A stretch of DNA of 64,000 nt from an uncultured Alteromonadaceae bacterium (GCA_947503265.1 CANNDC010000021.1:4797-68796); one strand, 5' to 3'; shown: positions 1-19,779, counted from the stretch's first letter. Notes: generated from the sequence alone by a model not told the origin. Made by a program: numbers and translations.

Positions 1-303
1 ATAGTCACAGGTGTGAGAGTACTCAAGCATAAAGAAACGCCAGGGCTAGGTGATAAAATCGAAACTAGAATCAGTGATTGGATCACCCGTTTTACTGGAT
101 TGACTTTAACTGATGAAAATACCGATAAGTGGAAAGTGAAGAAAGATGGTGGACAGTTTGATCAATTTACTGGTGCCACGATTACACCCAGAGCTGTAGT
201 AGGAGCAGTAAAAAACACACTAATTTATTTTGAACAGAATAAAAAAGCACTGTTTGCTGCACCGAACAACTGCGATGCACCTGACCAAAACCAAGCGCAC
301 TAA
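1..303 (+). CDS. rnfG: Rnf/Rsx electron transport complex subunit G (3' part; gene starts before the window)
   Basis: Frame open from base 1; motifs [12 protein letters not shown] and [15 protein letters not shown] (FMN-binding Thr); directly upstream of rnfE-nth. Confidence 0.95.
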
Positions 304-314
304 TTAGGTTATAG

Positions 315-1016
315 ATGATGAATGAATATCAACAACTAACATGGCAAGGAATATGGAAGAATAATCCCGCTATTGTGCAGCTTTTGGGTCTGTGTCCGCT
401 TCTTGCTGTCACTATGACAGTCGTAAACGGGCTGGGGCTGGGATTGGCAACCACACTTGTGCTAATCGGTTCAAATTGTACCGTCTCTCTAGTACGAAAT
501 TGGGTACCCAACGAAATTCGCATTCCCATTTTTGTGATGGTGATCGCCGCGTTTGTGACTATAGTTCAATTGGTCATGAATGCTTATACCTTTCAACTCT
601 ATGAAGCACTTGGCATCTTTATTCCGCTTATCGTAACCAATTGCGCCATTATAGGTAGAGCAGAAGCATATGCTTCCAAGAACCCGATTAAATATGCGGC
701 GTTTGACGGGGTCATGATGGGACTTGGATTTACATTAGTGTTAGTCATTCTAGGTGGTATGCGCGAATTATTAGGCTACGGAACATTGTTTTCAGGGGCT
801 GATTTATTACTGGGCGACTGGGCCAGTGCAATGAAAGTAACTGTTTTTGAAGCTGAAAGTCCATTTTTACTGGCGATTTTGCCCCCAGGAGCTTTCCTAG
901 GAATGGGGTTGCTCATTGCCCTAAAAAATGCGCTGAACAATCGCGTAGAGTCTTGGGTAGAAAGCGCTGACGAAGAAAAAGTCGTTCAACGCGCACGTGT
1001 TACAGCAGAGAGTTAA
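315..1016 (+). CDS. rnfE: Rnf/Rsx electron transport complex subunit E
   Basis: [20 protein letters not shown] and IPLIVTNC motifs; rnfG-rnfE-nth synteny. Confidence 0.97.
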
Positions 1017-1025
1017 TCCGACTAA

Positions 1026-1658
1026 ATGAATAAAGAGAAACGGCACGAGATCCTTACTCGATTAAGAGATGCTAATCCTAACCCTACAACAGAACTCAAC
1101 TATTCATCCCCGTTTGAGCTGCTTATTGCAGTCATTTTATCCGCTCAGGCAACCGATGTGGGTGTCAATAAAGCCACCGATAAACTTTATCCAGTCGCAA
1201 ACACGCCAGAAACTATCTTTGCATTAGGTGTCGAGGGTTTAAAGGAATATATCAAAACCATTGGCTTGTTTAATGCCAAAGCTGAAAACGTCATCAAGAC
1301 GTGTAAAATTCTTATGGAACAACATGGTTCGCAAGTACCCGAAAACCGAGAAGCACTTGAAGCGCTGCCAGGCGTTGGGCGCAAAACCGCAAATGTTGTT
1401 TTAAATACAGCGTTTGGCTGGCCAACCATCGCTGTGGATACCCATATTTTCAGGGTATCGAATCGAACCAAGCTTGCAATGGGTAAAAACGTCGATAAGG
1501 TCGAAGAAAAGTTACTCAAAGTTGTACCTTCCGAATTCAAAGTCGATGTGCATCACTGGCTAATTCTTCATGGCCGATACACCTGCATTGCACGCAAGCC
1601 AAGATGCGGTTCCTGCATTATTGAAGATTTGTGTGAGTTTAAGGATAAGACTGAGTGA
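1026..1658 (+). CDS. nth: Endonuclease III
   Basis: LLIAVILSAQATD, HhH motif LPGVGRKTANVVL, VDTH, 4Fe-4S motif C-X6-C-X2-C-X5-C. Confidence 0.99.
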   Translation: MNKEKRHEILTRLRDANPNPTTELNYSSPFELLIAVILSAQATDVGVNKATDKLYPVANTPETIFALGVEGLKEYIKTIGLFNAKAENVIKTCKILMEQHGSQVPENREALEALPGVGRKTANVVLNTAFGWPTIAVDTHIFRVSNRTKLAMGKNVDKVEEKLLKVVPSEFKVDVHHWLILHGRYTCIARKPRCGSCIIEDLCEFKDKTE

Positions 1659-1735
1659 GCACAAACAGTTTTGTGCCTAAAGCAAACGCAGGGTTTTAGA
1701 ACTAATGCTTGCGTTGTTTTAACAATCTAGCTAAA

Positions 1736-1764
1736 GTGTGTATATATTTAAAATTTATACACAC
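1736..1764. promoter_or_regulatory. Palindromic operator upstream of vapBC (probable autoregulation site)
   Basis: GTGTGTATA-TATTTAAAATT-TATACACAC: perfect 9-bp arms, near-perfect 29-bp palindrome ending 8 bp before the vapB ATG. Confidence 0.7.
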
Positions 1765-1772
1765 GGTGATAT

Positions 1773-1967
1773 ATGCGCACTAACATTGTTATCGACGATG
1801 AACTAATGTCTCAAGCGATAAAATCAACTGGATTGAGAACTAAAAAAGAAGTAGTTGAACAAGGCCTTAAACTTTTGATTCAAAGGAAAAAACAACAATC
1901 AATCAGGGAATTAAGGGGGCAAATCACTTGGGAAGGCAACCTCGATGAAATGAGGAGTAATGAGTGA
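1773..1967 (+). CDS. vapB: Type II antitoxin, VapB family
   Basis: 64 aa, MRTNIVIDDELM N-terminus typical of VapB; stop overlaps the GTG start of the PIN toxin. Confidence 0.88.
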   Translation: MRTNIVIDDELMSQAIKSTGLRTKKEVVEQGLKLLIQRKKQQSIRELRGQITWEGNLDEMRSNE

Positions 1968-2365
1968 TTCTCGCTGACACGAGTGTTTGGGTTGATTATT
2001 TAAATGGTCGAGTTACTCCGAAAACTGATTTTCTTGATGAGAGTCTGAAGGATGGGACGCTTGCCATGGGAGACCTAATTTTTCTTGAAATACTTCAGGG
2101 GATCGGAGACGACGAGCAGTTTCAGGAAGTGCATACTAGATTATCTTTGTTAGACCAATATTCGATGCTTAATACTGATTCGGTCGTGAGATATGCAAAA
2201 AATTATAGAAAACTGCGCAAAAAAGGAATTACGATTAGAAAGACAAACGACGTCGTGATTGCATCTTTCTGCATTCAAGAGAACATACCATTACTGTTCT
2301 CTGATAGAGATTTCAAACCATTTATAGAACATTTTGGCCTTAGGCCAGCTTACCTAGAGACATGA
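1964..2365 (+). CDS. vapC: Type II toxin, VapC PIN-domain ribonuclease
   Basis: ILADTSVWVDYL, E in IFLEILQG, TNDVVIA and LLFSDRDF acidic PIN motifs. Confidence 0.92.
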   Translation: MILADTSVWVDYLNGRVTPKTDFLDESLKDGTLAMGDLIFLEILQGIGDDEQFQEVHTRLSLLDQYSMLNTDSVVRYAKNYRKLRKKGITIRKTNDVVIASFCIQENIPLLFSDRDFKPFIEHFGLRPAYLET

Positions 2366-2616
2366 GCACTAGCAAACTGCTGTGAGGACTTTGCACAGAA
2401 ACTCTTTGATTTACAGCTTCAATTTCTTTCCAGACTGTCTGCAAGTATGCCAATGGTTTTTGAGAAAAAACATTAGCCATGTAACATACAAAAACATAAT
2501 TCTATAAAAATAAACTCGGTCTTTATTACGACATTATATTGCTTAGTTATATTGACCAGCATCAATCCAAATGCCGTGGCAAATGAAACAGGTTCAATAG
2601 TAAAGACAAAAGAATG

Positions 2617-2672
2617 GATGCGGTTCCTGCATCATTGAAGACTTGTGTGAATTTCAGGATAAGACAGAGTAA
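2617..2672 (+). repeat. Direct repeat of the last 56 nt of nth (copy 2)
   Basis: 50/56 nt identical to 1603-1658; reads CGSCIIEDLCEFQDKTE* vs CGSCIIEDLCEFKDKTE*. Confidence 0.97.
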
Positions 2673-2698
2673 ATAACTGTCCGCAAGTATCTTCGAAC

Positions 2699-3877
2699 TC
2701 AAGGTTTCAATACGTTATCGCTACCTTCCTGATTTAAGTTTAGCGCTCGTATTGGGTATGGAATCACTATCCCTTCTTCTGCGAACCTTTTATGTAGGGC
2801 TTTGATAAATTCGGATTTAATAAAAAACCGATTAAAATATTCCTGAGCTCGCAGCATCACTGTCAAATTGATACTAGAGTCATCAAAACCCGTAAAGATG
2901 ACAAATGTGTCATATTCGGAGATACCCCATTTGTGGCTTTTCAACACTTGTTGGGCAACTTCAAGCGTCACTTTTTCAACTTGATCTAGGTCAGAATCAT
3001 AGTGCACACCAAGATCTACCGGCACAGACAGCTGTTTTTCAGGATAGTAATAGTTGATTATTTTAGACTGTGCGAGCTTGCTGTTAGGCATAATAACGAT
3101 GTTGTTTGGAAGCATTTTTATCCAGGTGGAGCGCCATCCTATCCTTTCGACGAAGCCTTGTTCACCTGAATCTAGCTCTATAAAGTCGCCTACTCTGATC
3201 GGTTTATCAGCCAGCATTTGAATGCCTGAGAAAAAGTTCTCCAGCGTTGGTTGCAGCGCTAGAGCTACCGCGAGGGAGCCAATACCTAAAGAAGCGACAA
3301 GAGGCGTGATCGAAACACCGACATTGCTAAGTATAATTAACACACCAATGACAATAATCACACCGCGCAGAAGACCTCTTAATAAGGGACCACTGCTGCG
3401 CAAACCACTCCCCTTTGAAATAATGCGTGTAATACTCATACGAGCAAAGTGATCGGTGAAAACTAACAATGATACGATCATAAGCAGCAATGCAACTGTA
3501 TTGATCTGAGTCGCCCACGTAATTACCGTTTCGTCATAGAGTTGTACAAGCTTTTCTGTGGCCTTTAAACTTATTGTAACTATCAACAGACTTAAGGGAC
3601 GTTTGGCAGCACGCACTGCAATGCCAGACCACTCATAGTTTTTTGAGTGATTCAACTCTCTTAAATACATGTATAAAAAGCGTTTCATCAACCAAAGGCT
3701 AGACAACACGATGAAGAAGAATGTTGGCCCTATTGCCCAATAAGGAATCCACTCAGTTAGCCAACTAAGAATATTTGTAATTGCGGTCAAGAGAGTATGC
3801 ATCCTGTTAAAGTACTTAATAGCCTTTAAAGCAATTATCACACCACTAAAACAAACCACATTAATAGTGTAGTTCAT
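2699..3877 (-). CDS. Small-conductance mechanosensitive channel (MscS family); start codon uncertain (3877 or 3802)
   Basis: ASLGIGSLAVALALQPTLENFFSG, KPIRVGDFI, GFVERIGWRSTWI, IIMPNSKL motifs. Confidence 0.92.
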   Translation of the reverse strand: MNYTINVVCFSGVIIALKAIKYFNRMHTLLTAITNILSWLTEWIPYWAIGPTFFFIVLSSLWLMKRFLYMYLRELNHSKNYEWSGIAVRAAKRPLSLLIVTISLKATEKLVQLYDETVITWATQINTVALLLMIVSLLVFTDHFARMSITRIISKGSGLRSSGPLLRGLLRGVIIVIGVLIILSNVGVSITPLVASLGIGSLAVALALQPTLENFFSGIQMLADKPIRVGDFIELDSGEQGFVERIGWRSTWIKMLPNNIVIMPNSKLAQSKIINYYYPEKQLSVPVDLGVHYDSDLDQVEKVTLEVAQQVLKSHKWGISEYDTFVIFTGFDDSSINLTVMLRAQEYFNRFFIKSEFIKALHKRFAEEGIVIPYPIRALNLNQEGSDNVLKP

Positions 3878-4075
3878 TGAAATATATCAATATTTGATGT
3901 CCCTGCTGACGCTATCGCACTCTATCCATGCAACACTGCACCATGTTGATGTTAATCAATATCGTAAGTAAAGTTAGTGCAGATTGCATATTTGCTTTGG
4001 CGCTTTTGCTATCGTTGATTTGCAAGGATCATAATCATCTAATCTTTACCTTGTTTATGTCTACTTTCCTTATCT

Positions 4076-4321
4076 TTTGGTTAGAATTCCATAGCGGCAG
4101 ACACCCGCATTTCACGCGTTTCCAATCGCACCAAACTGGCAATGGGTAAACACGCCGATCAGGTAGGACAAAAGCTCCTGAAAGTAGCGCCTAAAGAATT
4201 CAAGGTAGACGCGCATCACGGGCCAATTCTTCCTGGCCATTACACCTATTTTGCACGCAAGCCTAGATGCGAAGCCTGAATCTTTGAAGAATTGTATGAG
4301 TTTAAGGATAAGACGGACTAG
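4076..4321 (+). pseudogene. Decayed copy of the 3' 246 nt of nth (copy 3)
   Basis: Colinear without indels with 1413-1658; 52/76 aa identical over 4091-4318; nonsense codons replace W (TAG 4082) and C (TGA); three of four FeS cysteines lost. Confidence 0.95.
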
Positions 4322-4410
4322 GTAAATGCCTTACGAAAGCTGTGAATTGAACGGTTCAACGCACAGCGCAAATTTTTAATTTGTACTTTCATATGACAAT
4401 TTTTATTCAG

Positions 4411-4779
4411 TTACTCGGTGCAAAGATTTGGAATGGCTAGTTTGCTAAATAGATGGGGCGAAGTTACAGCCGAAGAAGGGTATACTTTTAAGGTTTCTTG
4501 AAAATCAGGGTGGTTAAAAGCGTTTCTGAAGGTTTCGACAGATTCCCAAACAGCATAATTCATAAATACGGTGCTCCCTGCTATGCCCCTGTGTAATTGA
4601 GTTGAAATATATCCAGGCTGTTTTTTCATCCAATTCGCGTCATTTTCCCACGCTTTTAAAAGTGCTGAAATATCTTCTTCTGCTACATTAAAAATGTTTA
4701 CAAGCACTACAGGCGACTGCTCTGTTTTTAGTTGCTCAAAAATAGGTATTTGCTTATCAAGGGGTTGCATATCTATCAT
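4411..4779 (-). CDS. Antibiotic biosynthesis monooxygenase (ABM) family protein
   Basis: QPGYISTQLHRG...FMNYAVWES motif, 122 aa. Confidence 0.85.
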   Translation of the reverse strand: MIDMQPLDKQIPIFEQLKTEQSPVVLVNIFNVAEEDISALLKAWENDANWMKKQPGYISTQLHRGIAGSTVFMNYAVWESVETFRNAFNHPDFQETLKVYPSSAVTSPHLFSKLAIPNLCTE

Positions 4780-4834
4780 ATAAATTCTCCAGTATATGTT
4801 TTCAAATATTCTTAATTCAAACTTCTTGCATAGA

Positions 4835-5287
4835 TTAGTTAGATGCGTTTGGTCTTAACTTGCCTGTCATTTGAAGGCCATCTCTAAAATTCAAACCCAT
4901 CAGTATTAGATTGGTAGCACCAGCCATTAGCTCCACCCCCTGTACGATATAAAATTTTGTATCAAAGGAACCTGAACTTGCCCAAAGGCTCAGAAAAATC
5001 GCACAGGGCGTGAGAACAAATAGTCCATTCACAGCTATAAATGGCATTCGTTTTCTCTTCTTACCGATCAATTGGCCTTTTCTGTTTTTGCTTAAGGAAA
5101 AACCTGTACCGCCAACTAATGCCATTGCGGGAATTAAGATGTACAAACCTGGGTTAACGACTAAGGTTTTTACTATTGTGATCGCTTCTTTCGAGCCGAA
5201 TAACTCGACAGCGATGGTAGAAGTAAAAAAAGTCGCAATACAAAAGGTTGCAACGATAGCAGCGACAAGATGTATATTACGTTTCAT
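4835..5287 (-). CDS. Conserved multi-pass membrane protein of unknown function (likely start MKRNIHL at 5287)
   Basis: Four hydrophobic segments and a KRMPFIAVNG motif; the ORF-track extension to 5392 overlaps the operator and marR. Confidence 0.75.
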   Translation of the reverse strand: MKRNIHLVAAIVATFCIATFFTSTIAVELFGSKEAITIVKTLVVNPGLYILIPAMALVGGTGFSLSKNRKGQLIGKKRKRMPFIAVNGLFVLTPCAIFLSLWASSGSFDTKFYIVQGVELMAGATNLILMGLNFRDGLQMTGKLRPNASN

Positions 5288-5302
5288 TAACTGGCCTCTT
5301 GA

Positions 5303-5363
5303 ATTATAATGACAACATATTGTCATTATAATACTCACAAAGCAGTTTGACAACATATTGTCA
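5303..5363. promoter_or_regulatory. Two identical palindromic operators TGACAA-CATA-TTGTCA (probable MarR sites)
   Basis: 5310-5325 (within 13-bp arms 5303-5332) and 5348-5363, between the divergent membrane gene and marR. Confidence 0.8.
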
Positions 5364-5379
5364 TTAAATAGGAAAAGCG

Positions 5380-5829
5380 ATGGAACACACACTGAAAGGC
5401 AGCATTTTGACGGAAGTATTTGTGGAGACCTTTAAGCTAAATGGTTTTTTGATTGCGGCAGGAGACCAATTGGTCAAAGAGCTTAATTTGACAAGCGCTC
5501 GCTGGAAAATACTTGGGGCGCTGTCCCAGAGCAAAAATTCGATGACTGTACCAGAAATAGCAAGAACAATGGGACAGTCAAGGCAGGCTGTTCAACGACT
5601 AGCCAATGAAATGACGGATGATGGGTTGCTTGAGCCTGTAGATAACCCAAATCACCAAAAAGCAAAGCTAATATGTATTACAAACAAAGGTCAAGACACT
5701 TACAACAAGGTGATGGAAAAGCAAATTCCATGGGCAAATGCTATTGCGCAAGATTTAAAAGAGGCTGACTTAGAATCTGCTTTATCGACTTTAAAATTTC
5801 TTAACAGCTATATGGGGCATAGATCTTAA
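5380..5829 (+). CDS. MarR family transcriptional regulator
   Basis: LTSARWKIL...TVPEIARTMGQSRQAVQRLANEM..DGLL winged helix. Confidence 0.92.
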   Translation: MEHTLKGSILTEVFVETFKLNGFLIAAGDQLVKELNLTSARWKILGALSQSKNSMTVPEIARTMGQSRQAVQRLANEMTDDGLLEPVDNPNHQKAKLICITNKGQDTYNKVMEKQIPWANAIAQDLKEADLESALSTLKFLNSYMGHRS

Positions 5830-5946
5830 ATAGGGGAAGTCAAAGAGCTCCTTAGACTTATTACATTTAGAGAGTACGAGAATAATAATTATGCCTAGCA
5901 ACTTGAAAAAGTTCGTCAAGTTAGCATCACTAGGGTTTTAGAACAT

Positions 5947-6081
5947 TTATCTATTTAACGCTTTTCTCTTCTTAATCTTTGCGCCTAAACAACGCTCAAC
6001 ATTCTTCCTACCCATATAAGCAACAGGTGCATAAGGGCTTCGTTTTTTTAACTGTTTCTTAACTAACTTTATTAACTTCAA
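5947..6081 (-). CDS. Candidate 44-aa highly basic small protein (not in ORF track)
   Basis: TTG start 5 nt after GAGG; MKLIKLVKKQLKKRSPYAPVAYMGRKNVERCLGAKIKKRKALNR*; 16 K/R, 1 acidic. Confidence 0.4.
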   Translation of the reverse strand: MKLIKLVKKQLKKRSPYAPVAYMGRKNVERCLGAKIKKRKALNR

Positions 6082-6697
6082 GCTTGCCTCTAGGATATTT
6101 TACTCATGAAAAATGACGTGTAACTCACGTATAGTTTAGCATGGGTAAAAAATTTTTCATAAATTTTAATAAAAATGTCATAATTTTGTAATATTTAAAA
6201 AGTTTCAGTCTTCTATTTTGCTTTTAATACAGAAGAATTAGTTTGCCGCTTTAACGCCATCGTTGTCAGTATTTAAACGGCTGATATTTTAAATTTCTCT
6301 AAAATACAAACTTGCTATTATGAGCTTGTGTAAAGCCTTTGAATATTATCTCAAGCCGATCAATTTCAACCTGCAATGAGCGCGCGGGCTGCTGAATTTC
6401 AGTTAGTACATTCCTTCTTAACGAACAGGTTATTAGATTAATTACGGTCCAGTGTTTCACGACATAGATAACACCATCCTAAATCTACTTGTCGATGACG
6501 AAGATAGCTTGCTGCAATTGGTAATTTCTGAGAGACGCGAGCCTTACGATGCCAAATATCGCTATACCGAATAACGTCAGCTTGCCTACAAAAGTTAGGG
6601 AAGCACTAAATAATTTTCATAATAGACTGATAATGCATTCGAGTTTAGGCTATAAATCACCTAGATAAAGCGATAACGGCTAGCGAGTCAAAAAATA

Positions 6698-9600
6698 ATG
6701 GCGAATCATTCCTTGCTGCTGGCAACATTAGTGCTCATCTCGATTACATGTACTGCACATGCGGATAATCTCTCCCAAAAAGCGTTTAAAGCGCCTGCTA
6801 AAAACTATCAACCTAAAACTTGGATGCATGCCATGAATGGCAATATTAGCAAACCAGGATTTACTGAAGATTTTAAAGCAATGAAAGACGTGGGCATTGG
6901 AGGGGCGATTTTCTTCCATGTGCACCGGCGCAATGTCCCCTATTCTTCTAGAGGCCCGGTTCGGTTTGGAAGCAATGAGTTTTACGAGCATTTAGTTCAT
7001 GCAGCCGCTCAAGCCGATAAAAATGACATCGAATTTGGCATCCACAATTCTGATGGTTGGACATCAAGCGGTGGTCCGTGGGTAACGCCTGAAATGTCAA
7101 TGAAGCGAATAACCTGGTCGGAACAATTTGTCCAATCCCCTAATGGCGGCCAATCCTTTGTGCCACAACAACCCGGTTTCGCAGAAGGTTTATATCGTGA
7201 TGTAGCAGTTATTGCCTTACCTGAGAATAAATATAATCAACAGAATGTATTTGCTAATGCAGTATTTTCATCTTCAGACCCCACGCTTGATGCTAGCGTG
7301 TTGGGCGATAAAGATTGGGATACAGAATTCACATTTATTGAAAATAATGACGACGAGTATTGGATACAAGTAGAAGTAGCCGAGCCCACTACTTTGCGCA
7401 GTTTACAAATTGAAACTCCGACAAGGCATGGCGAAGGAGCTTTACAAATTTCAGACGATGGTAAAACTTTTACTACGGTGGTTGAAAAGTTACGTCGCCC
7501 TCGAACAGGAGCAAGAATGTGGGCATTCAGTCCACAACTAGTGAATGAAGGTCAAGATGGGTATACAGCTAAATACTTTCGGTTTGTGTTTACTAAACCC
7601 ATTATCCTAAAAAGATTTGATTTATGGTCCATTCCGCGTTTTTCCCACTGGTTATCGATGAACTCGATGGAACGTGGGGGCCTTAGTATGGCACCTAGCC
7701 TGCCACAAGATGCGGTTGTTAAATCCCAAGACGTTATGCTGCTAAACCGCGGTGAATTGCCAAAAAACGGTATTCGCTTGCCAGCAGGAAACTGGCATAT
7801 TTTGCGCTTCGGATACACTAGCACAGGCGCGTTTAATGTTCCTGCAACCATTGAAGGGGAAGGTTTAGAAATTGACAAATTTGATGCGAAATCTTTGCAA
7901 TTTCATTTTGATCAGTTCGTAGGTAAATTAGTTAAAAAAGTCCGTGAAAAAGGCATTAATTCACTCAAAACCACCGAGATTGACAGCTACGAAGTAGGCG
8001 GGCAAAACTGGACGAGAGGTATTGAAGACACTTTTAAGAAAAAATTTGAATATGACTTCATCAAATGGCTGCCACTCCTAACCGGGCGCGTTATCGAATC
8101 GCCAGAACATTCAGGCGCTATCCTACAAGAGTTTCGGCAGCATTTGTCTGACTTAATGGTTGAAAACTATTTTGGCGAATTTACACGATTAACCGAGCAA
8201 TACGGTTTGGAATCGTATATTGAACCATATGGATGGGGACCTTTTGATGAACTGGCCGCAGGTGGCAAAGCCGATCGATTAATGGGGGAATTTTGGGTAC
8301 GCGACCGAGAATATAACGGTCGTGTTATGGCTGCCATTTCATCGGGCCATATTTATGGGAAAAAAATCATCTCAGCCGAATCGTTTACCTCAATCAATAC
8401 TGTAAATTGGTACGGTCATCCATATTTCTATAAACACTATGGCGATCAAATGTGGGCACGAGGAATTAACGAGACCATGTTTCATCGTTTTGCTCATCAG
8501 CCAAACAATCATATTAAACCGGGTATGACGATGGACTCGATTGGCTCTCATATCGATCGCACTCAAACTTGGTGGGGCAACGGTGGGGTTGAATGGTTTA
8601 AGTATCTTGCAAGAGGCTCGTATTTATTACAACAGGGTGTGCCTGATGCTGACTTTTTAATACACCTTGGTGATATCGCGCCGCTTAGAGTTGGAAATGC
8701 AAATAACACCGGGGTGCCTGATGGTTTCGCCTATGACTATACAAACACAGATGTATTGCTTAACCGTGTGAGTGTCAAAGACGGTTGGTTGGTGTTGCCA
8801 GAGGGTACTCGTTATCGAGCATTACAACTGCATAATACTGAGTACCTTCATTTAAAAACCTTGAAAAGAGTACAAGAACTGGTTGAGCAAGGTGCTACGG
8901 TGATCGCTGATAAACCTAAAAAAGTCATTGGGTATAGCGAATGGCCACAAGACGAAGAATTTCAGGCTATAACACAAACACTGTGGGGCGATGGCAGCCC
9001 CCAAATACGGCAAATCAATAAGGGAAGAATAAGTAGCTTGGGGCTTGAAGAAAGCATTCAACAATTAGGTTACGAAGCCGACCTGAAACTGAATGGAGTC
9101 GCGGCTAAGTTGTTTGCACATCGACGAATCGCCGGCAACGATCTTTACTATTTTTATAATGACAAACCTGAATTTTCTCAACTGGAAGTGGACATTCGAA
9201 ATGGCGACGGAAAGCCAGAAATTTGGAATATTGATGACGGTAGTATCGAAGAAATTACACGGTATCAGCGTAAAGGCAATCGTTTAATTACCCAATTGGC
9301 ACTTGAACCTTACGCTGGCCGTTTTGTACTTATCCGCAGAGACGGTAAATTACCAAAATACGATGGGACACATTCTCAACTTGTTCAAGATATTTATTTA
9401 AATACAAATCAAACCCGTGCTGTAAAAGAATTGTCTGGGGCGTGGGAGCTTGAATTTGACACTAATTGGGGTGGCCCAAGCAAGATTATTTTTAATGAGT
9501 TATCTGACTGGATACAACATAGTGATGACGCTGTTAAACATTATTCAGGTACAGCTAAATACGCCAAAAATTTCAGTATAACTAAGCACGAACTTGCAGC

Positions 9601-9985
9601 AAAAAAACTTTACCTAGATTTAGGTAGCGTGCAGCAAATTGCTGAAATCACCGTGAATGGCAAAGAAGCTGGAACGCTTTGGAAACCGCCATTTGCGCTC
9701 GATATTCATCCTCTTCTCAAGGAAGGGCAAAACACTTTGGAGGTTAAAGTAACGAATACTTGGGTGAATCGCCTAATTGGCGATGAAGCGCTGCCTGACA
9801 CTAGTGGATATAAAATGGTTGGGGACACGGTTCCATGGCTTAATGCAAATGAAAAACCGCCAAAAAGCCAACGTGTTACTTTCACTGGGTACAACTTTTT
9901 CCAAAAAGAAAAGAGTAGAGTTTTGCAAAGCTCAGGCTTGTTAGGACCGGTAAGATTGATCAGTTCCACCGATAGTTCGGATTGA
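6698..9985 (+). CDS. GH106 family glycoside hydrolase (alpha-L-rhamnosidase-like) with inserted F5/8-type domain, secreted
   Basis: PKTWMHAMNGN, GWTSSGGPWVTPEMSMK, EIDSYEVG, SAESFT, FHRFAHQP, C-terminal YLDLG..QIAEITVNG; signal peptide AHA/DN. Confidence 0.85.
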   Translation: MANHSLLLATLVLISITCTAHADNLSQKAFKAPAKNYQPKTWMHAMNGNISKPGFTEDFKAMKDVGIGGAIFFHVHRRNVPYSSRGPVRFGSNEFYEHLVHAAAQADKNDIEFGIHNSDGWTSSGGPWVTPEMSMKRITWSEQFVQSPNGGQSFVPQQPGFAEGLYRDVAVIALPENKYNQQNVFANAVFSSSDPTLDASVLGDKDWDTEFTFIENNDDEYWIQVEVAEPTTLRSLQIETPTRHGEGALQISDDGKTFTTVVEKLRRPRTGARMWAFSPQLVNEGQDGYTAKYFRFVFTKPIILKRFDLWSIPRFSHWLSMNSMERGGLSMAPSLPQDAVVKSQDVMLLNRGELPKNGIRLPAGNWHILRFGYTSTGAFNVPATIEGEGLEIDKFDAKSLQFHFDQFVGKLVKKVREKGINSLKTTEIDSYEVGGQNWTRGIEDTFKKKFEYDFIKWLPLLTGRVIESPEHSGAILQEFRQHLSDLMVENYFGEFTRLTEQYGLESYIEPYGWGPFDELAAGGKADRLMGEFWVRDREYNGRVMAAISSGHIYGKKIISAESFTSINTVNWYGHPYFYKHYGDQMWARGINETMFHRFAHQPNNHIKPGMTMDSIGSHIDRTQTWWGNGGVEWFKYLARGSYLLQQGVPDADFLIHLGDIAPLRVGNANNTGVPDGFAYDYTNTDVLLNRVSVKDGWLVLPEGTRYRALQLHNTEYLHLKTLKRVQELVEQGATVIADKPKKVIGYSEWPQDEEFQAITQTLWGDGSPQIRQINKGRISSLGLEESIQQLGYEADLKLNGVAAKLFAHRRIAGNDLYYFYNDKPEFSQLEVDIRNGDGKPEIWNIDDGSIEEITRYQRKGNRLITQLALEPYAGRFVLIRRDGKLPKYDGTHSQLVQDIYLNTNQTRAVKELSGAWELEFDTNWGGPSKIIFNELSDWIQHSDDAVKHYSGTAKYAKNFSITKHELAAKKLYLDLGSVQQIAEITVNGKEAGTLWKPPFALDIHPLLKEGQNTLEVKVTNTWVNRLIGDEALPDTSGYKMVGDTVPWLNANEKPPKSQRVTFTGYNFFQKEKSRVLQSSGLLGPVRLISSTDSSD

Positions 9986-10103
9986 TCTGTGTGAATATCC
10001 AAATTGGTTTCTTGCGCTCGATTACGAAACTAGACCGCCGCAATCTCAATTAACTTGTGCGTATCCAGTCTAGAGGTAGCCAAGTCGACTAGATAAATTA
10101 ACC

Positions 10104-10130
10104 TGAGTTTGTTCGTGCTGAACAAACTCA
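10104..10130. terminator. 11-bp stem hairpin between the convergent GH106 genes
   Basis: TGAGTTTGTTC-GTGCT-GAACAAACTCA; no clear U-tract. Confidence 0.45.
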
Positions 10131-10250
10131 ACGTGTTGCATCTTAACAAATATTAGCATCTCCATCAGACTGAAAAGTAACAAAGAAAAAGTCAGGGATT
10201 TATATTTCATGTGTTCAACAGAGAATCATCAGTTTATCGTTGAACAACCC

Positions 10251-13200
10251 TCATTTTAACACTGGCACTATTTGATACGGTGTAATCTGCACCGGTCCGA
10301 TTAACCCAGAAGACTGTCTAGGTTCATCATCCGACATAAAAACTTGAGTCACAAAGGTCAAACGTTGGCTTTTAGGTGGAGGCTGGTTATCGGTATACCA
10401 TTGGGGCATTTTTGTAATCGGGTCTTGCCAGCGTGCAATTTTAAACCCAGAAGTATCAGGTAATTTGCGGTCGGCCAGTAAACGGTTTACCCACAAATTA
10501 GCCACTTCTATTTGAAGTTGATTATCTCCGGGTTTAACAAAATCAGTAATATCCAGTTGATAAGGTGCTACCCAAGCTGTGCCAACCCTCTGACCATTAA
10601 GGGTCACCGTGGCTGCCACATCTACCTGACCTAGATCTAATGTAAGCTTGGTGTTCTGTTGCAAATATTGCTCTGGTAACTCAAAGTGTTGTCGATACTC
10701 AGCTGTGCCCGAATAATCTTGAATACGGGTATCTGGGTGCTCTCGCCAATCAACCAAATCTGGGAAAGTAAAAGTTTCGTCTAAGCCGTAGTACTCATCA
10801 AACTTCACGGACCATGTGCTAGGTAAAGCGTAAGGTTCGGGGTATGTCGGTAACAAAATGTCGGATTGTGAAGAAGCTAACGTGATTTGTTTGCTTCCTT
10901 GTTGAGCCACTAATTGTTTTTGATCATCGGGCCCTAGCAGCACCTGAATATCTTGATCAATGATAGTGTCAACAGATACTGGCGCAATACCAGCAGATGA
11001 CTCAGCAAACACAACAAACATAGATTGATTTGGCTGCAAGGAAAACGCCACCCGAGTATGACTGCCCTTTTCTTCAAACGCACCCAATTGGACAATGCGC
11101 CCAGTACTTGGGTCCCATAGCTCAGGGATTTTGCCTTGTACGTTAAAATGCCCGTCTACAAGTCGTGTATCACCGCTGTCGTTATAGATGAAATAGATAT
11201 CATGATCTGCACTTTTTCGGTGTGTGAAATAGTAGTGCTTAACTCCTTTAAGTATTAAATCACGATGGAAACCTTGCTCGGCGTATATCTTATCCCAGTC
11301 TAGCAAAGTGGTGTCAGCTACCGAATGATTCGGGATGATACCTGCATGACCTTGAGTCGTTTTTGGATTAAACGGGATATTGTAGGTTGAAGGCTGTGAC
11401 CAAATAAACGCTACCATTTGTTCAAATTGACTTTGTTGTTCAGGTGTTACAAAGCGTCCAGACAATTGTTCTACTGGGGCCCCAACAATCACCACCCCTT
11501 GTTGCGACAAAGCATGTATTTTCTGTAATGACGCAAAGCTTAAGGTGCGATGGTTATTTAATACTAATACTTTGTATTGGCTGCCATGTGGTAAGACTAA
11601 TTTGCGGTCTTGTACGGTAAGCTTATGCAACATATCTGTATTCAAACAATCGTAATTAATCGATACTGGGATTACTGAACTTAGGGGATCTTTTTCAGGG
11701 CAAATAGTTGGAGTAGCGTCTCCCAAATACCATAGAATATCTGATACTGCATTGCCGACACGCAGCAAATGCTGGCCTCGTGTGATGTACTCGAACCAGG
11801 CTTTACCTGCTCCATTCCACCAAGGCTGAGTGCGGTCAAAATGCGCGCCCCACATATTCATGGTCATGCCGGGCATAACATGGGTATTGGCTTGATGAGC
11901 AAAACGATGGAATACATGCTGATTCACCCCGAGGGCCCAACTTTTGTCGCTGTCGACTTTGCCAACCGATGGATTAAACAACCAATTATTCTGCGGGAAC
12001 TGGGTAAAGGCTTCAGCTGCTACTATGGGTTTGTCATAGAGGTTTGCCGTTGAAGCAGACGACGAGATCCTAAAATTGTTGGTATCCAGCCAAAACTCAC
12101 CCATAGGGTAATCGGCATTACTGGCCACATCTAGTTCGTTGAAAGGCCCAGAACCATAGGGCTCAAGATAGGTTTTAACGCCATCCTTATGCGCCAGCTC
12201 TGAAAAGTACCCATAGTAGTTCTCAGTAATTAAGGTATTGTTAAACTCGCGTGTATCCCACAAGACCGCCTCAGACGTTTTCGCAGAATCTACGAACTTA
12301 CCAGCAAACAATGGCAAGTAAGGCACTAAATCATAACCATATTGTTGTTCAAACAATTTTTCGTAATCATGGGTCCAGTTTTGCGCGCCCACTTCGTAAC
12401 TATCAATTTCTAAGCTATATAAGGCATTGGGCGCAACCTTTTTAACTTGATTAAGAACATTAGTGATGTAGTTTTGGTAATGCAATTTAAACGCAGGCTT
12501 ACTAAACTTATCCACCTCTAGGCCAGTACCCTCACGTGAGGCAGGGATATTCACGGCGCCTGTGCTGGTATAACCAAAACGCATTATGGTCCATTTTCCT
12601 TCAGGTAATCTGGTTTGTAAGTGACCATTTTCAGCCATATCTGAAGTTAAGTTTCGCACCTCAGCCGTTTTCACAGTTAGGGATTCCGGTGCACTGCCGA
12701 TAGATTCGAACTCTTGATAATCGGTACGGCTTGCTTGAGTGCGCCCAGTGTAATTATCCATAGTCGGAGTTGAAGACACTCGAATTTCCATCAAGTTAAC
12801 AGGCTGTTTGCTCTCAACGCGAAAGTATTTCGCTTTATGCCCCACAAAAGCGTCATCTGTTCCGTACACATATTTGCCAGGACGTCTTAGGATTAAGTCT
12901 TTAACTCTAGTGAAAGTTTTACCATCATTAGAAATATGCAATGACAGCTCTGCACCGCGGCCGTTATACAACAACATTTCCAGCAGGCGCAACGTATAAG
13001 GTTGGTCGTATGCAAACTGCAACCACGCGGGTTTCCCATCTAAGGGTGACAAAGCACTTTGGTCGCTGACATCTCCATTGGTGAGAACATCAAGCTGAAA
13101 ATTTGGATCTGAAGCAGTAATGACAGGCGCACGATTCGCATCATCTATTTCACTTGCTAGAGCCGGATAAGCGATGACAGCAACATCTTGATAATAGTCG

Positions 13201-13739
13201 AGTAAGCTTTGCGGTTGCGTGAGTGTTAGATTTACATCACCACCTTCTACCACAGTTTCATTGAAGGTCAGACGCTTCATCGAGTGTTCAGGAGTCACCC
13301 AGGGACCACCGCTTGATGTCCACCCATCACAGTTGTGCATACCAAAGGTCAACCCAAGTCGTTGTGACTCTTTGGCTAAGTGTCCAATCAATTCAATATG
13401 CTCGGTAGAGTTGAATCTGACGTTCCCCAAAGGAATACCTTGAGTAACGTTAAATAGCATAGTGCCACCAATACCGACCTCGGCGATAGACTCCAAGTCT
13501 TTGGTTAAGCCTGCTGCCGTCATATTACCACTCATGGCATGTAGCCAAGTTAATGGTTTAGATGAGGACGGAGGCGTAACAAACGCCGCTTTCAATTGGG
13601 CGTGGGCCTCAGACTCCACTCTGGGTTGCGATGGATGCTCACTACAAGACAAAATGGAAAGAGCAAACAAACTAATAAGCAAGCATCTAGTAGACAGGCT
13701 GAATGCGGAACCTTTTGGTAACAAAGTCTTGAGTATCAT
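10251..13739 (-). CDS. GH106 family glycoside hydrolase (alpha-L-rhamnosidase-like), predicted lipoprotein
   Basis: PLTWLHAMSGN, GWTSSGGPWVTPEHSMK, EIDSYEVG, AAEAFT, FHRFAHQA; lipobox-like SILSC. Confidence 0.85.
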   Translation of the reverse strand: MILKTLLPKGSAFSLSTRCLLISLFALSILSCSEHPSQPRVESEAHAQLKAAFVTPPSSSKPLTWLHAMSGNMTAAGLTKDLESIAEVGIGGTMLFNVTQGIPLGNVRFNSTEHIELIGHLAKESQRLGLTFGMHNCDGWTSSGGPWVTPEHSMKRLTFNETVVEGGDVNLTLTQPQSLLDYYQDVAVIAYPALASEIDDANRAPVITASDPNFQLDVLTNGDVSDQSALSPLDGKPAWLQFAYDQPYTLRLLEMLLYNGRGAELSLHISNDGKTFTRVKDLILRRPGKYVYGTDDAFVGHKAKYFRVESKQPVNLMEIRVSSTPTMDNYTGRTQASRTDYQEFESIGSAPESLTVKTAEVRNLTSDMAENGHLQTRLPEGKWTIMRFGYTSTGAVNIPASREGTGLEVDKFSKPAFKLHYQNYITNVLNQVKKVAPNALYSLEIDSYEVGAQNWTHDYEKLFEQQYGYDLVPYLPLFAGKFVDSAKTSEAVLWDTREFNNTLITENYYGYFSELAHKDGVKTYLEPYGSGPFNELDVASNADYPMGEFWLDTNNFRISSSASTANLYDKPIVAAEAFTQFPQNNWLFNPSVGKVDSDKSWALGVNQHVFHRFAHQANTHVMPGMTMNMWGAHFDRTQPWWNGAGKAWFEYITRGQHLLRVGNAVSDILWYLGDATPTICPEKDPLSSVIPVSINYDCLNTDMLHKLTVQDRKLVLPHGSQYKVLVLNNHRTLSFASLQKIHALSQQGVVIVGAPVEQLSGRFVTPEQQSQFEQMVAFIWSQPSTYNIPFNPKTTQGHAGIIPNHSVADTTLLDWDKIYAEQGFHRDLILKGVKHYYFTHRKSADHDIYFIYNDSGDTRLVDGHFNVQGKIPELWDPSTGRIVQLGAFEEKGSHTRVAFSLQPNQSMFVVFAESSAGIAPVSVDTIIDQDIQVLLGPDDQKQLVAQQGSKQITLASSQSDILLPTYPEPYALPSTWSVKFDEYYGLDETFTFPDLVDWREHPDTRIQDYSGTAEYRQHFELPEQYLQQNTKLTLDLGQVDVAATVTLNGQRVGTAWVAPYQLDITDFVKPGDNQLQIEVANLWVNRLLADRKLPDTSGFKIARWQDPITKMPQWYTDNQPPPKSQRLTFVTQVFMSDDEPRQSSGLIGPVQITPYQIVPVLK

Positions 13740-13937
13740 AAGTAATATAGATTCTGTGGTAAAAAGAGAGTTAAAAAATCACTGAATTGATTGCTAATAA
13801 ATAAATGTAGCATGGTGTAAAAGTAGTAGGAATGATTAACCATTTATGATTTTTACTTTTGTAAATCAATTCAACGTAAAATGTAACGGCTACACAGCCC
13901 TTTAATAGCTTAAAAAGGCGCCTCTTTGGGAGCAAAG

Positions 13938-13994
13938 CGTTGTGGTTCCTATCCCTTGGAAGATCAGTTGGAGCCCAAGGATAAGATGAGTTAA
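13938..13994 (+). repeat. Highly decayed copy of the last 57 nt of nth (copy 4)
   Basis: Reads RCGSYPLEDQLEPKDKMS* vs native RCGSCIIEDLCEFKDKTE*: 10/18 residues identical, ungapped, stop at the same codon. Confidence 0.75.
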
Positions 13995-14131
13995 CAGTTG
14001 AGCCTTTGCAGGCGATATCCTGTTATGTGATGAAATTCGAATATAGTGATAGATAAAGAGCAATATCGCGTTATGCTATTTACCGTTTTTTAGATCGAGC
14101 AAATGAAAATACCAAAGATGCTATGTAAATT

Positions 14132-15253
14132 ATGACAGCCATTCATCAATACATCTGTGCAATTGGAAGCTTTCAAGGTGTGCTACTGTTTTTTCTATTG
14201 TTCTACGGCCATGAAAAATCAGCAGCAAGTAAAGTGCTTGCTTTTTATTGTCTTGTATTAGGCTTGGCTTTTTTCTTACCATTCATCACCTTTGATGTGT
14301 CTTATGATGTGTTTAAGCCTTTAGCAGCTTGGTTATTCTTCTTACCGGTATTGTACGGAAGCATGCTTTATCTTTACTGCAGTAAAGTTATTTTTAATAC
14401 GTCTTTTACAAAGTTTGATCTCATTCATCTTGCGCCCATAATTATCTGCTATGTGTTAAATGCGGACGCTCTCTTATACCATCATGAAGAAATGAGGCTA
14501 TGGATAGTAGGCGACCCCGCTCCAACGCTTCGCCTATGGTTGAGTGAGTATATTTTGTTTGGCTTCAGTCTTGCTTATTTAATTGCAACTGCTAGGTTGA
14601 TCAGGCTCTACCATCAGCGGGCTCGCAATAATCTGTCGAATTTCAACCCATTAGTATTTAGGTGGCTCAGAGCTTTGATTGTGTCATTGATAATTATCTT
14701 TCTGGTCAAAGGAATCATGGCCTTCAGCAATTTTGCGACAATGAGAATGTTAATCCTATCGGATGCGTTGATTGTCTTAATTATTTATTTCATTGCTTTC
14801 ACGCACTGGAGAAACCCACAATTTTTTATCGCCAATAGCCACGGAGATGAACAAGCTTTAAGTCAGAAATCAATATCGACAGAGACCGAAAGCACAGGTG
14901 CGATTGATGAACATACGCGTGCTGTTATCTTTGACGAAATCACGCGGCACATTGAAAAAGAACACAGTTATCGAAATAGTAAGTTGAGCTTGACTGTATT
15001 GGCAGGCGAAATTGGCATTTCACCCCATCATCTATCTGAAGTGTTAAATCAACATGCTGGGCAAAATTTTAACTATTTTATTAATGCCTATCGCGTTAAA
15101 GAGGTGTGTAAAAGACTGAATTCAAATAGCACGAGTGCTGTTTTAGATGTTGCACTTGCCGCTGGTTTTTCTTCTAAAAGCACGTTTAACACTATTTTCA
15201 AAAAGTTTATGGGCATTACTCCTTCCCAGTATCGTCAAGACAATCAAAACTAA
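14132..15253 (+). CDS. AraC family regulator with N-terminal multi-TM sensor domain
   Basis: Hydrophobic N-terminal 230 aa; C-terminal YRNSKLSL..LA....HHLSEVLN...FINAYRV...VALAAGFSSKSTFN. Confidence 0.92.
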   Translation: MTAIHQYICAIGSFQGVLLFFLLFYGHEKSAASKVLAFYCLVLGLAFFLPFITFDVSYDVFKPLAAWLFFLPVLYGSMLYLYCSKVIFNTSFTKFDLIHLAPIIICYVLNADALLYHHEEMRLWIVGDPAPTLRLWLSEYILFGFSLAYLIATARLIRLYHQRARNNLSNFNPLVFRWLRALIVSLIIIFLVKGIMAFSNFATMRMLILSDALIVLIIYFIAFTHWRNPQFFIANSHGDEQALSQKSISTETESTGAIDEHTRAVIFDEITRHIEKEHSYRNSKLSLTVLAGEIGISPHHLSEVLNQHAGQNFNYFINAYRVKEVCKRLNSNSTSAVLDVALAAGFSSKSTFNTIFKKFMGITPSQYRQDNQN

Positions 15254-15274
15254 TGCGCTGGTCGGCCAAGTCCG

Positions 15275-15308
15275 AGATTATAAAATTTGACGTTCAATTT
15301 TATAATCT
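15275..15308. promoter_or_regulatory. 13-bp-arm inverted repeat between araC and the amidohydrolase (operator or terminator)
   Basis: AGATTATAAAATT-TGACGTTC-AATTTTATAATCT. Confidence 0.5.
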
Positions 15309-15364
15309 GAGGCGCGAATGCGTTAGTTCCTTGTTGGAATAGATACACTTAAACAATATAAAAG

Positions 15365-16675
15365 GTGTGTCTAGTGTCCTTGAAATCAAAACTCATTTTA
15401 ATCTGTAATGTCCTTTCACTGTCTATAGTTTACGCGGTTGCCCAGGCTAACGAGCAATCACAAATAGGCAAATTAAACGATATGTATGCGAAGAACATTT
15501 TTGCTGAATTGCTGGAGATTAGGCGAGATTTATTTGCTCATCCAGAGTTATCTGGACAAGAAAAACGCACATCTAAAGTTGTTGCCAACTATCTAACCAA
15601 TCTTGGATTAGAAGTTAAAACAGGCGTCGGTGGATACGGGGTGGTAGGAATTTTAAAGGGTGCAAAACCTGGTAAGGGTATCATTTGGCGTGCGGATATG
15701 GATGCAGCCGTATTTGAATATGGCGAACAAAATCATGTTCACAACGGCTCCAGCAAAAGTAAGCCTAATGTCGCCCACGTGTGTGGTCATGACGTTCACA
15801 CAACCATAGGGCTAGGTATCGCCAATACGCTGTCTCAAAAAATCGAACATTTAGCAGGCACAGTGTATTTTATATTCCAGCCAGCAGAGGAAAATCAACA
15901 AGGTGCAAAAGCCATGATTGCTGATGGATTATTTAACATTATCCAAGCTGATGAGATTTATGCGGCACACGTTGCTCCATCGCCAACGGGTGTTATAACT
16001 ACCTCACCGGACAACGTGTTTTCGCATTCTCGTTTCTTAACAATCACATTTGACGGCACCAACAATATTAGTGAGATAACATCTTTGGTGAATGAGGTAT
16101 TGTCATCAATCGTTCGCATAAAGTCACCTGAACGATTCACTAATCTTCTTAACGTCGTAGATCCAAAAATCGGTTTAAGCAACCCTGATACAATTTATCA
16201 GGATTACGTATTGCTTAATGGACCTCCCCAGCAAAACGTTGATAAAACCAGTATCACGTTCTTTGCTGAACTGTTTGCAGCAAATTATCAAGACATTGAA
16301 AAAGTTATTGAACAACTGGAGCAAAATTTCAGCACCAGCCGATTTAACAGCCGTTTTCAATCAATTCAAGTTTCACAAACGCGAGAAGGAACTTATAACA
16401 ATCGAAAACTAATCAACGAGGCCAACCAGTTTTTTTCAGTAGCCTTTGGAGATAAGGCCATTCAGGACAATTATGGAAAAATTCCATTTGCCAGCGAAGA
16501 TTTCGGTCATTTTCAGAAAAGTATACCTGGCGTTTACTTTTTTATTGGTGTGGCAGATACCGTCAAAGGTAATATCGCTTTTCCGCATTTGCCCGGTTTT
16601 GAGGTTGATGAAAAGGTTATTCAATATGGCGTGAGCCGTTTTTCTGCTCTAATCGAACATCGGCTGCAGAACTAG
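15365..16675 (+). CDS. M20D family amidohydrolase, probably exported
   Basis: RRDLFAHPELSGQE, RADMDA, HVCGHDVH, FQPAEE, SEDFG, PHLPGF; N-terminal signal-like segment. Confidence 0.88.
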   Translation: MCLVSLKSKLILICNVLSLSIVYAVAQANEQSQIGKLNDMYAKNIFAELLEIRRDLFAHPELSGQEKRTSKVVANYLTNLGLEVKTGVGGYGVVGILKGAKPGKGIIWRADMDAAVFEYGEQNHVHNGSSKSKPNVAHVCGHDVHTTIGLGIANTLSQKIEHLAGTVYFIFQPAEENQQGAKAMIADGLFNIIQADEIYAAHVAPSPTGVITTSPDNVFSHSRFLTITFDGTNNISEITSLVNEVLSSIVRIKSPERFTNLLNVVDPKIGLSNPDTIYQDYVLLNGPPQQNVDKTSITFFAELFAANYQDIEKVIEQLEQNFSTSRFNSRFQSIQVSQTREGTYNNRKLINEANQFFSVAFGDKAIQDNYGKIPFASEDFGHFQKSIPGVYFFIGVADTVKGNIAFPHLPGFEVDEKVIQYGVSRFSALIEHRLQN

Positions 16676-18823: not shown

Positions 18824-18857
18824 CCGAGCTGATAAGAAGCACTCAGACTTTTATCGA

Positions 18858-19721: not shown

Positions 19722-19779
19722 TGATTGACGATGCCCTGAAATAAAAAGCGCTTATGGATATACTTATTATCGTACTAAG

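Follow-up and report, generated by a model that had tools for sequence, protein, structure and literature searches.

Why does the end of a DNA-repair gene recur several times downstream of the gene, with unrelated genes between the copies? This question was raised by a stretch of 64,000 nucleotides from an uncultured Alteromonadaceae bacterium (GCA_947503265.1 CANNDC010000021.1:4797-68796; the whole stretch is called the window hereafter), in which the 3' part of nth, the gene for endonuclease III, was present four times in direct orientation. Comparison with related loci suggested a fossil array, built up by accretion where a family of integrative mobilisable elements attaches by means of a large serine recombinase (LSR), and we gave this reading a probability of about 0.8. 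An initial annotation of the window had proposed an integron-like array built by serial insertion at nth. The displaced ends at one fixed point of nth, with the newest beside the gene, were borne out, but the integron-like part was not, since neither intI nor attC was present.

The copies were sought by BLASTN and by nhmmer with an nth DNA profile on both strands of the window. The gene and the copies of its 3' end were as follows.

1026 to 1658, plus strand: nth (endonuclease III), 210 aa, intact, with the Pfam domains HhH-GPD, HHH and EndIII_4Fe-2S.
1411 to 1658, plus strand: native nth 3' end (copy 1); the homology of the displaced copies begins at nth nt 386, which is window position 1411.
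2617 to 2672, plus strand: displaced nth end, copy 2, 5'-truncated and beginning near nth nt 578, with neither the P arm nor the core described below.
4074 to 4321, plus strand: displaced nth end, copy 3, full length and decayed, with 77% identity and two internal stops.
13938 to 13994, plus strand: probable displaced nth end, copy 4, 5'-truncated and heavily decayed, with 34/57 nt and 11/19 codons matching and the stop codon in register.

Three of the four copies reported in the initial annotation, including the native one, were certain. Copy 2 gave a BLASTN match of 54 nt (2617-2670) with 91% identity and an nhmmer E value of 1.9e-8, and 17/19 codons, including the stop, were conserved. Copy 3 was found (4074-4320) with an E value of 5.7e-51 over profile positions 89-335. 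Copy 4 was weaker, with an nhmmer E value of 0.24 against 1.7 Mb, or about 0.01 for the window alone. It was the sole 57-mer, copies 1-3 aside, with at least 30 matches to the native end on both strands (128 kb). We regarded 13938-13994 as a probable, not a certain, fourth copy. Identity over the last 57 nt dropped with distance from nth, from 50/57 in copy 2 to 45/57 in copy 3 and 34/57 in copy 4, which agreed with the decay described before. The differences between copy 3 and the native end were distributed 12/16/33 over the three codon positions; copy 3 is older, with extra neutral decay. The native 3' end codes for the catalytic Asp138 and the 4Fe-4S cysteines, and it would be the part exchanged at every integration. 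The copies bracketed blocks of 958, 1403 and 9616 bp, sizes that had been given correctly, and Pfam confirmed the cargo families, which are listed further below.

Is the point at which the displaced ends begin a recombination site? We compared 80 nth loci from other species, ranked by their similarity to normal nth. In twelve of these 80 related genomes, all Alteromonadales, nth was followed downstream by one to four displaced ends of the gene. In the nth DNA profile, nearly all full-length displaced ends began at nth nt 386-393 (window 1411), at the Ala-Phe-Gly-Trp codons. A metagenome scan with a junction pattern that required the normal right arm gave 27 contigs, and the nth remnant began at nt 386 in 23 of them. 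Overall, this starting base was common to more than 40 junctions. Directly upstream of the boundary, we found a 15-nt motif that did not belong to nth and that we called the P arm; its consensus ATCTACCTTnATTAT was followed by CTTTTGGCTGG. The P arm was present at about 49 distinct junctions compiled from Alteromonadales, Vibrio and marine metagenomes, covering more than 10 genera. It was kept in 15/18 junctions that had been found independently of the motif. The window carried one such arm.

4059 to 4073, plus strand: P arm, element-side half of an attR-type junction; GTCTACTTTCCTTAT, which fits the consensus and abuts copy 3.

This arm was the sole match in the window to TCTAC-N5-TTATC, for which 0.19 chance matches were expected in 128 kb. 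Neither an integrase nor an attC site had been noticed before. The first part of this claim stood, as no recombinase was recognised in the window by Pfam on the island open reading frames (ORFs), by-eye reading of the other ORFs of at least 150 aa, or tblastn with the LSR. But the att arm at 4059-4073 had been missed. In the case of copies 2 and 4, which began near nth nt 571-578, there was no arm or core. Truncated remnants in other loci began at many positions between nt 435 and 578, which indicated that copies 2 and 4 arose by later deletion or illegitimate joining and do not mark a second site. On the sequences compared, the boundary at nt 386 is a site and not an accident. One viral contig (L081) also matched the junction pattern, and it was discarded as a chance match without nth homology. 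In Aeromonas sobria, the final ~90 nt of nth were partly repeated (L067, 10655-10751) directly after the nth stop, with no cargo between; this repeat may be the scar of a lost insertion.

Were the copies imported, or duplicated in place? Direct repeats would also arise if the nth 3' end had been duplicated locally in tandem, with unrelated DNA inserted afterwards between copies that then decayed neutrally, and the initial annotation had pointed to closeness of the remnants to this nth as a sign of such a duplication. The remnants in the window were slightly closer to their own nth than to any sampled orthologue (77% vs 74%, and 91% vs 88%), but this carries little weight, because the sample was without a close relative and the best nth DNA identity was about 75-82%. 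Evidence came from 14 native/displaced or displaced/displaced pairs in other genomes, in which the differences lay almost wholly at the third codon position (for example 2/0/36, 4/0/38, 1/2/17, 4/2/20 and 6/2/41 by codon position). This meant that the copies had diverged as working gene ends in different lineages, and thus had been imported. Local duplication predicts neither these synonymous-type differences nor the recurrence of one boundary and one foreign P arm in more than 10 genera, and we considered it extremely improbable.

Which process moved the units? Homologous recombination was documented in one case. The related metagenome contigs L102 and L107 differed by exactly one cassette. 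The nth end of the shorter contig followed the native copy of the other as far as about +130 and then, from about +165 onwards, the other's displaced copy. The parentage switch was within the 247-nt repeat and not at the core, indicating that this gain or loss occurred by homologous recombination, as had been envisaged in the initial annotation. In addition, nth-end copies were more alike within a genome (median 0.81) than between genomes (0.74), which is expected if the donors were relatives. These results raised the possibility that accretion was purely homology-driven, with cassettes entering via nth-anchored homologous recombination and with no site-specific recombinase in this lineage. 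The recombination would be of the Campbell type through the 247-nt repeat, or would use an illegitimate join at the far end. The L102/L107 crossover is in line with this explanation, as is the within-genome likeness if donors must be similar enough, and the truncation of copies 2 and 4 at variable points (~571-578) without a P arm is as expected for illegitimate joins. However, homologous recombination cannot make the nt 386 boundary or the P arm at 4059-4073, and an LSR event is needed somewhere, possibly in a donor lineage. We considered a purely homology-driven origin possible but rather doubtful.

A close relative of the window in an aquaculture metagenome (97-99% identity) had the same arrangement and gave no informative presence/absence variant. 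Between the window and this relative (run X3), the difference was 2.9% over 1-5079 (rnf, nth, vapBC and mscS) and about 1% over 5073-19766. This step around 5073 points to recombination of a segment around nth. The metagenome contigs also showed a high-depth joint between 1642 and 2627; it was out of register, with only 24 nt on one side, and was read as an artefact of conserved nth words. A cassette common to L002 and L005 was tried for mapping unit borders, and it was too diverged at ~70% identity.

Which enzyme could use the site? On three metagenome contigs, an ORF of about 555 aa began 55-86 nt from the P arm and was directed away from it. This ORF was an LSR with the Pfam domains Resolvase and Zn_ribbon_recom, and the proteins of its clade were 552-574 aa in length. 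The clade, at 49% identity or more, included proteins from Pseudoalteromonas, Shewanella, Paraglaciecola, Brumicola, Lacimicrobium, Thalassotalea, Aliiglaciecola, Saccharobesus and Vibrio cholerae; beyond it, identity dropped to about 38%. All ten clade members examined sat at a P-arm/nth-end junction, and nine of the ten began 55-86 nt from it. The nine close LSRs came from the three metagenome contigs and six isolates, namely Lacimicrobium alkaliphilum, Pseudoalteromonas sp. T1lg22, Vibrio cholerae, Shewanella avicenniae, Brumicola pallidula and Thalassotalea agariperforans. In these six, among seven isolate genomes looked up, the LSR gene abutted the P-arm/nth-remnant junction, which was followed by gloA. 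The order after the junction was gloA-glpQ-motY-rnt in two of the six isolates, and motY-rnt followed in V. cholerae. In the three isolates whose locus extended far enough, nth and the rnf genes lay at the opposite end of an element of 7 to >11 kb. The L. alkaliphilum X13M-12 assembly had an empty nth-gloA-glpQ-motY region, and the L. alkaliphilum record that encodes the LSR had an 11-kb element there. An outgroup LSR from Pseudomonas (38% identity) adjoined a different gene. The earlier suggestion that the recombinase acts from outside the window was consistent with these results: none was recognised inside, and the likely family is the LSR on mobilisable elements of this size.

The cargo of the elements was read in Lacimicrobium (L109), V. 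cholerae (L111), Shewanella (L113), Brumicola (L136) and one metagenome contig (L108). It comprised a Mob_Pre relaxase or a VapE-like primase, restriction-modification systems of types I, IIG and III, and a pair of a helicase and a DUF2290 protein. The LSR elements look like mobilisable defence islands, judging from this gene content. Further cargo was PIN-TPR-GreABC with HetE-N. The Pseudoalteromonas element looked phage- or satellite-like (KilA-N, DUF2303). Saccharobesus litoralis (L138, 10001-21424) was atypical, with an inverted LSR gene that shared the strand of the remnant and was separated from the junction by 9.4 kb; the cargo was czc heavy-metal efflux and MerR, and an extra partial nth copy (nt 531-621) lay directly after the full remnant. 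No LSR of this clade and no free attP turned up in the phage, plasmid and IMG/VR collections. In the phage and plasmid records, the sole matches were complete nth genes, on chromosomes that had been mislabelled, and distant recombinases. A search of PDB sequences with the LSR gave no match.

These results also bore on a tyrosine integrase island of the tRNA/tmRNA type that would use nth as its target. The displaced 3' end and the tandem accretion match the pattern at Alteromonas tRNA genes (PMC4898812). However, all recombinases at the junctions were serine recombinases of one clade, and no tyrosine recombinase was found in any element or cassette inspected, which made this alternative very unlikely. 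A Xer/dif site was likewise tried, since nth left of the boundary is loosely similar to a XerD arm; it was dropped because the homology boundary lies outside that arm and all junction recombinases are LSRs.

How would the LSR recognise nth? In the four elements whose near end was visible, the element-borne nth coded for 219-220 aa, with a divergent C-terminal third and nine extra residues. This end read FGW-LKDNEGRYF-(L/I)AVDTHIQR..., and the catalytic Asp and the four cluster cysteines were kept. The DNA of the nine-residue insertion, CTAAAAGATAATGAAGGTAGAT, contains GGTAGAT, which is the mirror of ATCTACC in the P arm. When the P arm of attR was joined to the insertion of attL, a near-perfect palindromic attP of 48 bp was obtained: ATCTACC TTTATTATCTTTTGGC TG GCTAAAAGATAATGAA GGTAGAT. 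The reconstructed attP was palindromic at 16-18 of 25 positions in three elements, whereas random 52-mers reached 6.5 ± 2.3, with a maximum of 14/25 in 2000 trials. The attL site read TTTGGCTGG up to the junction and CTAAAAGAT after it, and attR read TTATCTTTTGGCTGG followed by CCNACC. The part common to both was only TTTGGCTGG, and in V. cholerae only GCTGGC, which placed the crossover within GGCTGG. By attP symmetry, we infer that the crossover dinucleotide is TG, at window position 1419-1420. The corresponding site in the window was as follows.

1394 to 1445, plus strand: predicted attB-type site in nth, with the core GGCTGG at codons G131-W132; its sequence is intact.

The normal right arm of nth carried the outer motif GTAGAYAC 4 bp nearer to the centre than the outer motif of the element right arm. 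Such a shift is the known pattern between bacterial (B-type) and element (P-type) half-sites of serine integrases. In relatives, therefore, the LSR was found at the site together with a dyad attP of ~50 bp with a central dinucleotide, and with hybrid attL and attR sites that share a short core. V. cholerae L049 was tried as a crossover reference, and its distance from L111 was too great for the point to be located. The first base of the P arm seemed to covary with the Asp codon of the adjoining nth copy (10/14); this was not significant, and it became irrelevant once the dyad partner had been located in the element-borne end.

How could an array have grown from these parts? In the proposed history, the LSR would recombine the 48-bp attP with a target in nth that lies about 240 nt ahead of the stop, at the codons for Gly-Trp (GGC TGG). 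A new last third of nth would arrive with the incoming DNA, so that the gene stays whole, and the old nth end would be displaced downstream, now behind the P arm of the element. Repeated events, with the newest beside nth, would leave one displaced end after another. Units without a recombinase would then be added, removed and reshuffled as the 247-nt repeats undergo homologous recombination, and deletions and point mutations would wear down the junctions. Three routes may deliver such units. By passenger transport, an LSR element would excise with a more distal attR and later leave alone, depositing the unit; this would fit L106 and L110, in which an LSR element was directly followed by recombinase-less units. 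Circles may also enter through the repeat by Campbell-type homologous recombination, which would fit L102/L107. Trans-mobilisation under relaxed site rules may be hinted at by the array L099. None of these routes accounts for the making of the first recombinase-less unit. We infer that the window's own cassettes entered by the same LSR route.

The array in the window held three recombinase-less units bounded by nth-end copies and one attR-type junction at 4059-4108. What is its present state? The P arm was kept at one of its three downstream junctions. In the sole complete junction, the core GGCTGG had changed to GGTTAG, which meant that TG was now TA and the Trp codon was now a stop. Cores were mutated in 8/18 recombinase-less junctions found without the motif and in 0/8 LSR-adjacent junctions. 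The confinement of mutated cores to recombinase-less junctions indicated decay. The window array is therefore inert history, while nth is presumably still able to receive an element. The core Trp codon TGG had become TAG or TGA in 6/18 recombinase-less junctions (L029, L032, L040 with two, L073 and window 4080-4085), often with GGC changed to GAC or GAT, and was TGG in 8/8 LSR-adjacent junctions. This may be plain decay, selection that locks a cassette in place, or selection against translation of a truncated Nth fragment. L032 and one L040 junction both have GACTAGCCTAC and may stem from one event.

Several observations weighed against an LSR-built array in the window. Neither an LSR nor a fragment of one was present in the window or at any of the 12 genome loci that bear arrays, so that the tie of the LSR to this array rests on the common boundary and the single P arm. 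In the case of copies 2 and 4, which are without arm and core, the events are not assignable to the LSR; their truncation could equally be due to later deletion or to illegitimate recombination. In addition, the recombinase-less units were compact, with cargo 13-180 nt from the arm, and had normal and not insertion-type nth ends. By the usual rules, the combination of a P arm with a normal nth end counts as attR, and attR is not recombined with attB by typical serine integrases such as those of phiC31 and Bxb1. Simple decay of LSR elements is thus not an explanation for these units. Finally, the ranking of the loci and the pattern with the normal right arm both bias the sampling against insertion-type nth ends.

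The same observations led us to consider whether the units, each composed of a normal nth end, a cargo of one to three genes and a P arm, are working cassettes moved by the LSR in trans or as passengers. In such an active system, each unit would be an independent small circle, and an LSR whose gene lies elsewhere in the cell would excise it and insert it at nth. The compactness of the units, with no recombinase remnant, agrees with this, as do the frequent retention of the P arm and the units downstream of LSR elements in L106 and L110. L099 (reverse-complement 4225-4510) had a complete attP-type site, in which a P arm 3 nt shorter than usual was joined to an insertion-type nth end; this site was part of a chromosomal array, in which a normal remnant and a one-gene cassette lay upstream of it. 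Such a P arm on an insertion-type end means that an integration took place beside an nth that already bore an element end. However, the junction of the circle would be an attR-type hybrid, which falls under the restriction on attR given above. Moreover, the recombinase-less cores were often mutated, six of the 18 to stop codons, and the sole complete junction in the window had TA and not TG. None of the 12 array-bearing species was among the named LSR holders, and the one documented gain or loss ran through the repeat and not the core. An active cassette system was judged unlikely on this balance, and we retained the fossil array at an LSR attachment site as the preferred reading.

The cargo and the surroundings of the array were as follows.

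1773 to 1967 and 1964 to 2365, plus strand: cargo block 1, vapB and vapC/PIN (Pfam VapB_antitoxin and PIN).
2699 to 3877, minus strand: cargo block 2, MscS-family mechanosensitive channel (first, second and third Pfam MS_channel domains).
4411 to 4779, minus strand: cargo block 3 (4411 to 13739 in total), ABM monooxygenase (Pfam).
4835 to 5392, minus strand: cargo block 3, membrane protein.
5380 to 5829, plus strand: cargo block 3, MarR (Pfam).
6698 to 9985, plus strand, and 10251 to 13739, minus strand: cargo block 3, two convergent GH106 rhamnosidase-like genes (Pfam Glyco_hydro_106).
14132 to 17649: AraC regulator, M20 peptidase and nitrilase (Pfam AraC, Peptidase_M20 and CN_hydrolase), flexible DNA between the last remnant and the backbone.
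17837 to 20552: conserved backbone and far border of the hotspot, with glpQ, motY (minus strand) and rnt (Pfam GDPD and MotY).

Upstream of nth, the window had rnfG/rnfE as in relatives, and the order glpQ-motY-rnt downstream of the hotspot was also found in Lacimicrobium, Brumicola and Vibrio cholerae. The backbone of the window continued past rnt with purF. The araC/M20/nitrilase genes were not at the equivalent position in relatives, where gloA follows nth. The gloA gene (glyoxalase I) lay <300 nt from the nth stop in 29/40 array-free relatives and directly after the last remnant in LSR-bearing genomes. It was absent from the whole 64-kb window, with the AraC, M20 peptidase and nitrilase genes in its place. 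GC content did not separate the cassettes (0.37-0.47 vs 0.42). The GH106 genes (6698-13739) were convergent paralogues with inverted-repeat segments I1-I5 of up to 82 nt and 82-87% complementarity, and the pair appears to be an inverted duplication within cargo block 3. The 5' end of the nitrilase gene contained two adjoining 20-nt direct repeats at 17600-17640, GCTACGCTTAGTTCTGAATT and GCTACGTTTGATTCTGAATT. In prfB (release factor 2; 61984-63078, minus strand), the ORF was without the usual first ~25 in-frame codons, presumably owing to the classical programmed +1 frameshift.

Which known systems does this array resemble? By analogy, the closest counterparts would be the composite islands of the staphylococcal cassette chromosome (SCC) and the accretion of cis-mobilisable elements (CIMEs), and not integrons. 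SCCmec and SCC composite islands lie at the 3' end of rlmH/orfX and are moved by the large serine recombinases CcrAB and CcrC. Both systems are LSR-driven, use the 3' part of a conserved housekeeping gene with the frame kept, and show tandem accretion at one site, and in both, recombinase-less units (pseudo-SCC) bounded by site repeats persist in the array. However, the nth crossover would lie about 240 nt inside the gene, so that each integration exchanges a third of the protein, and with it the catalytic Asp and the Fe-S cluster. The replacement end of the nth element also has the nine-residue insertion that encodes half of attP. The nth repeats are 247 nt as compared to ~15-18 nt for SCC, which opens homologous recombination as a second route. 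In addition, the recombinase belongs to another clade and is found in marine Gammaproteobacteria.

CIMEs and the tandem accretion of integrative and conjugative or mobilisable elements are known from ICESt1/ICESt3 of Streptococcus thermophilus, where tyrosine integrases and short att repeats are used. As in CIMEs, att-flanked units without a recombinase were found beside a complete element at one site, or had taken its place there. In contrast, the nth system uses a serine recombinase and its units bear normal, formerly functional gene ends. The likeness to integrons was in outcome only, with ordered small units at one site, the newest nearest to the anchor, and a recombinase outside the units. 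The window was without an IntI tyrosine recombinase and an attI/Pc promoter, and the anchor was the nth coding sequence. The junction consisted of the 15-nt P arm and nth coding sequence, and the dyad partner of the arm was in the element-borne end. This meant a double-strand attP of the LSR type and not an attC hairpin. Unlike integron cassettes, those of the window were in both orientations (mscS, ABM and one GH106 on the minus strand) and had their own regulators, MarR and AraC.

The phage serine integrases nearest to the LSR were those of the Burkholderia phages JC1, Bcep176 and Bcep22, with 35-37% identity. The domain make-up and the dyad attP of ~50 bp with a central dinucleotide were the same as in the phiC31/Bxb1 paradigm. 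In contrast to these integrases, the LSR had no phage carriers in the collections searched and was on elements that look mobilisable, with Mob_Pre or VapE-like genes and defence cargo. In Alteromonas, additive flexible genomic islands at tRNA/tmRNA genes contain strain-variable cassettes, with part of the target gene repeated downstream of each (PMC4898812). These islands share with the nth array the bacterial order, the hotspot of variable cassettes and the target repeats, but the nth target is protein-coding and the enzyme is an LSR; nth does not occur in the main text of that paper. Large surveys showed that serine recombinases often target conserved genes, and nth is not named in the main text (PMC10083194). 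We found no description of nth as a serine-recombinase target in the open-access literature.

What does the array mean for these bacteria? The results pointed to a previously unremarked hotspot common to Vibrio, Shewanella, Pseudoalteromonas, Alteromonadaceae and Colwelliaceae, for which the enzyme, attP, attB and the predicted crossover can be named. Its design is unusual, in that a third of a DNA-repair enzyme is replaced and half of attP is hidden in the nine-residue insertion of that enzyme. If the units were working cassettes after all, they would be the serine-recombinase counterpart of the integron on a protein-coding attB. The 48-bp attP and the conserved attB could serve as a new serine-integrase pair. 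In addition, the 247-nt displaced ends form a second handle for homologous recombination, and the locus offers a concrete case of two recombination modes building additive islands. Since the elements carry restriction-modification and candidate anti-phage systems together with a relaxase, the nth site may be a route for the spread of defence genes among marine bacteria, including V. cholerae.

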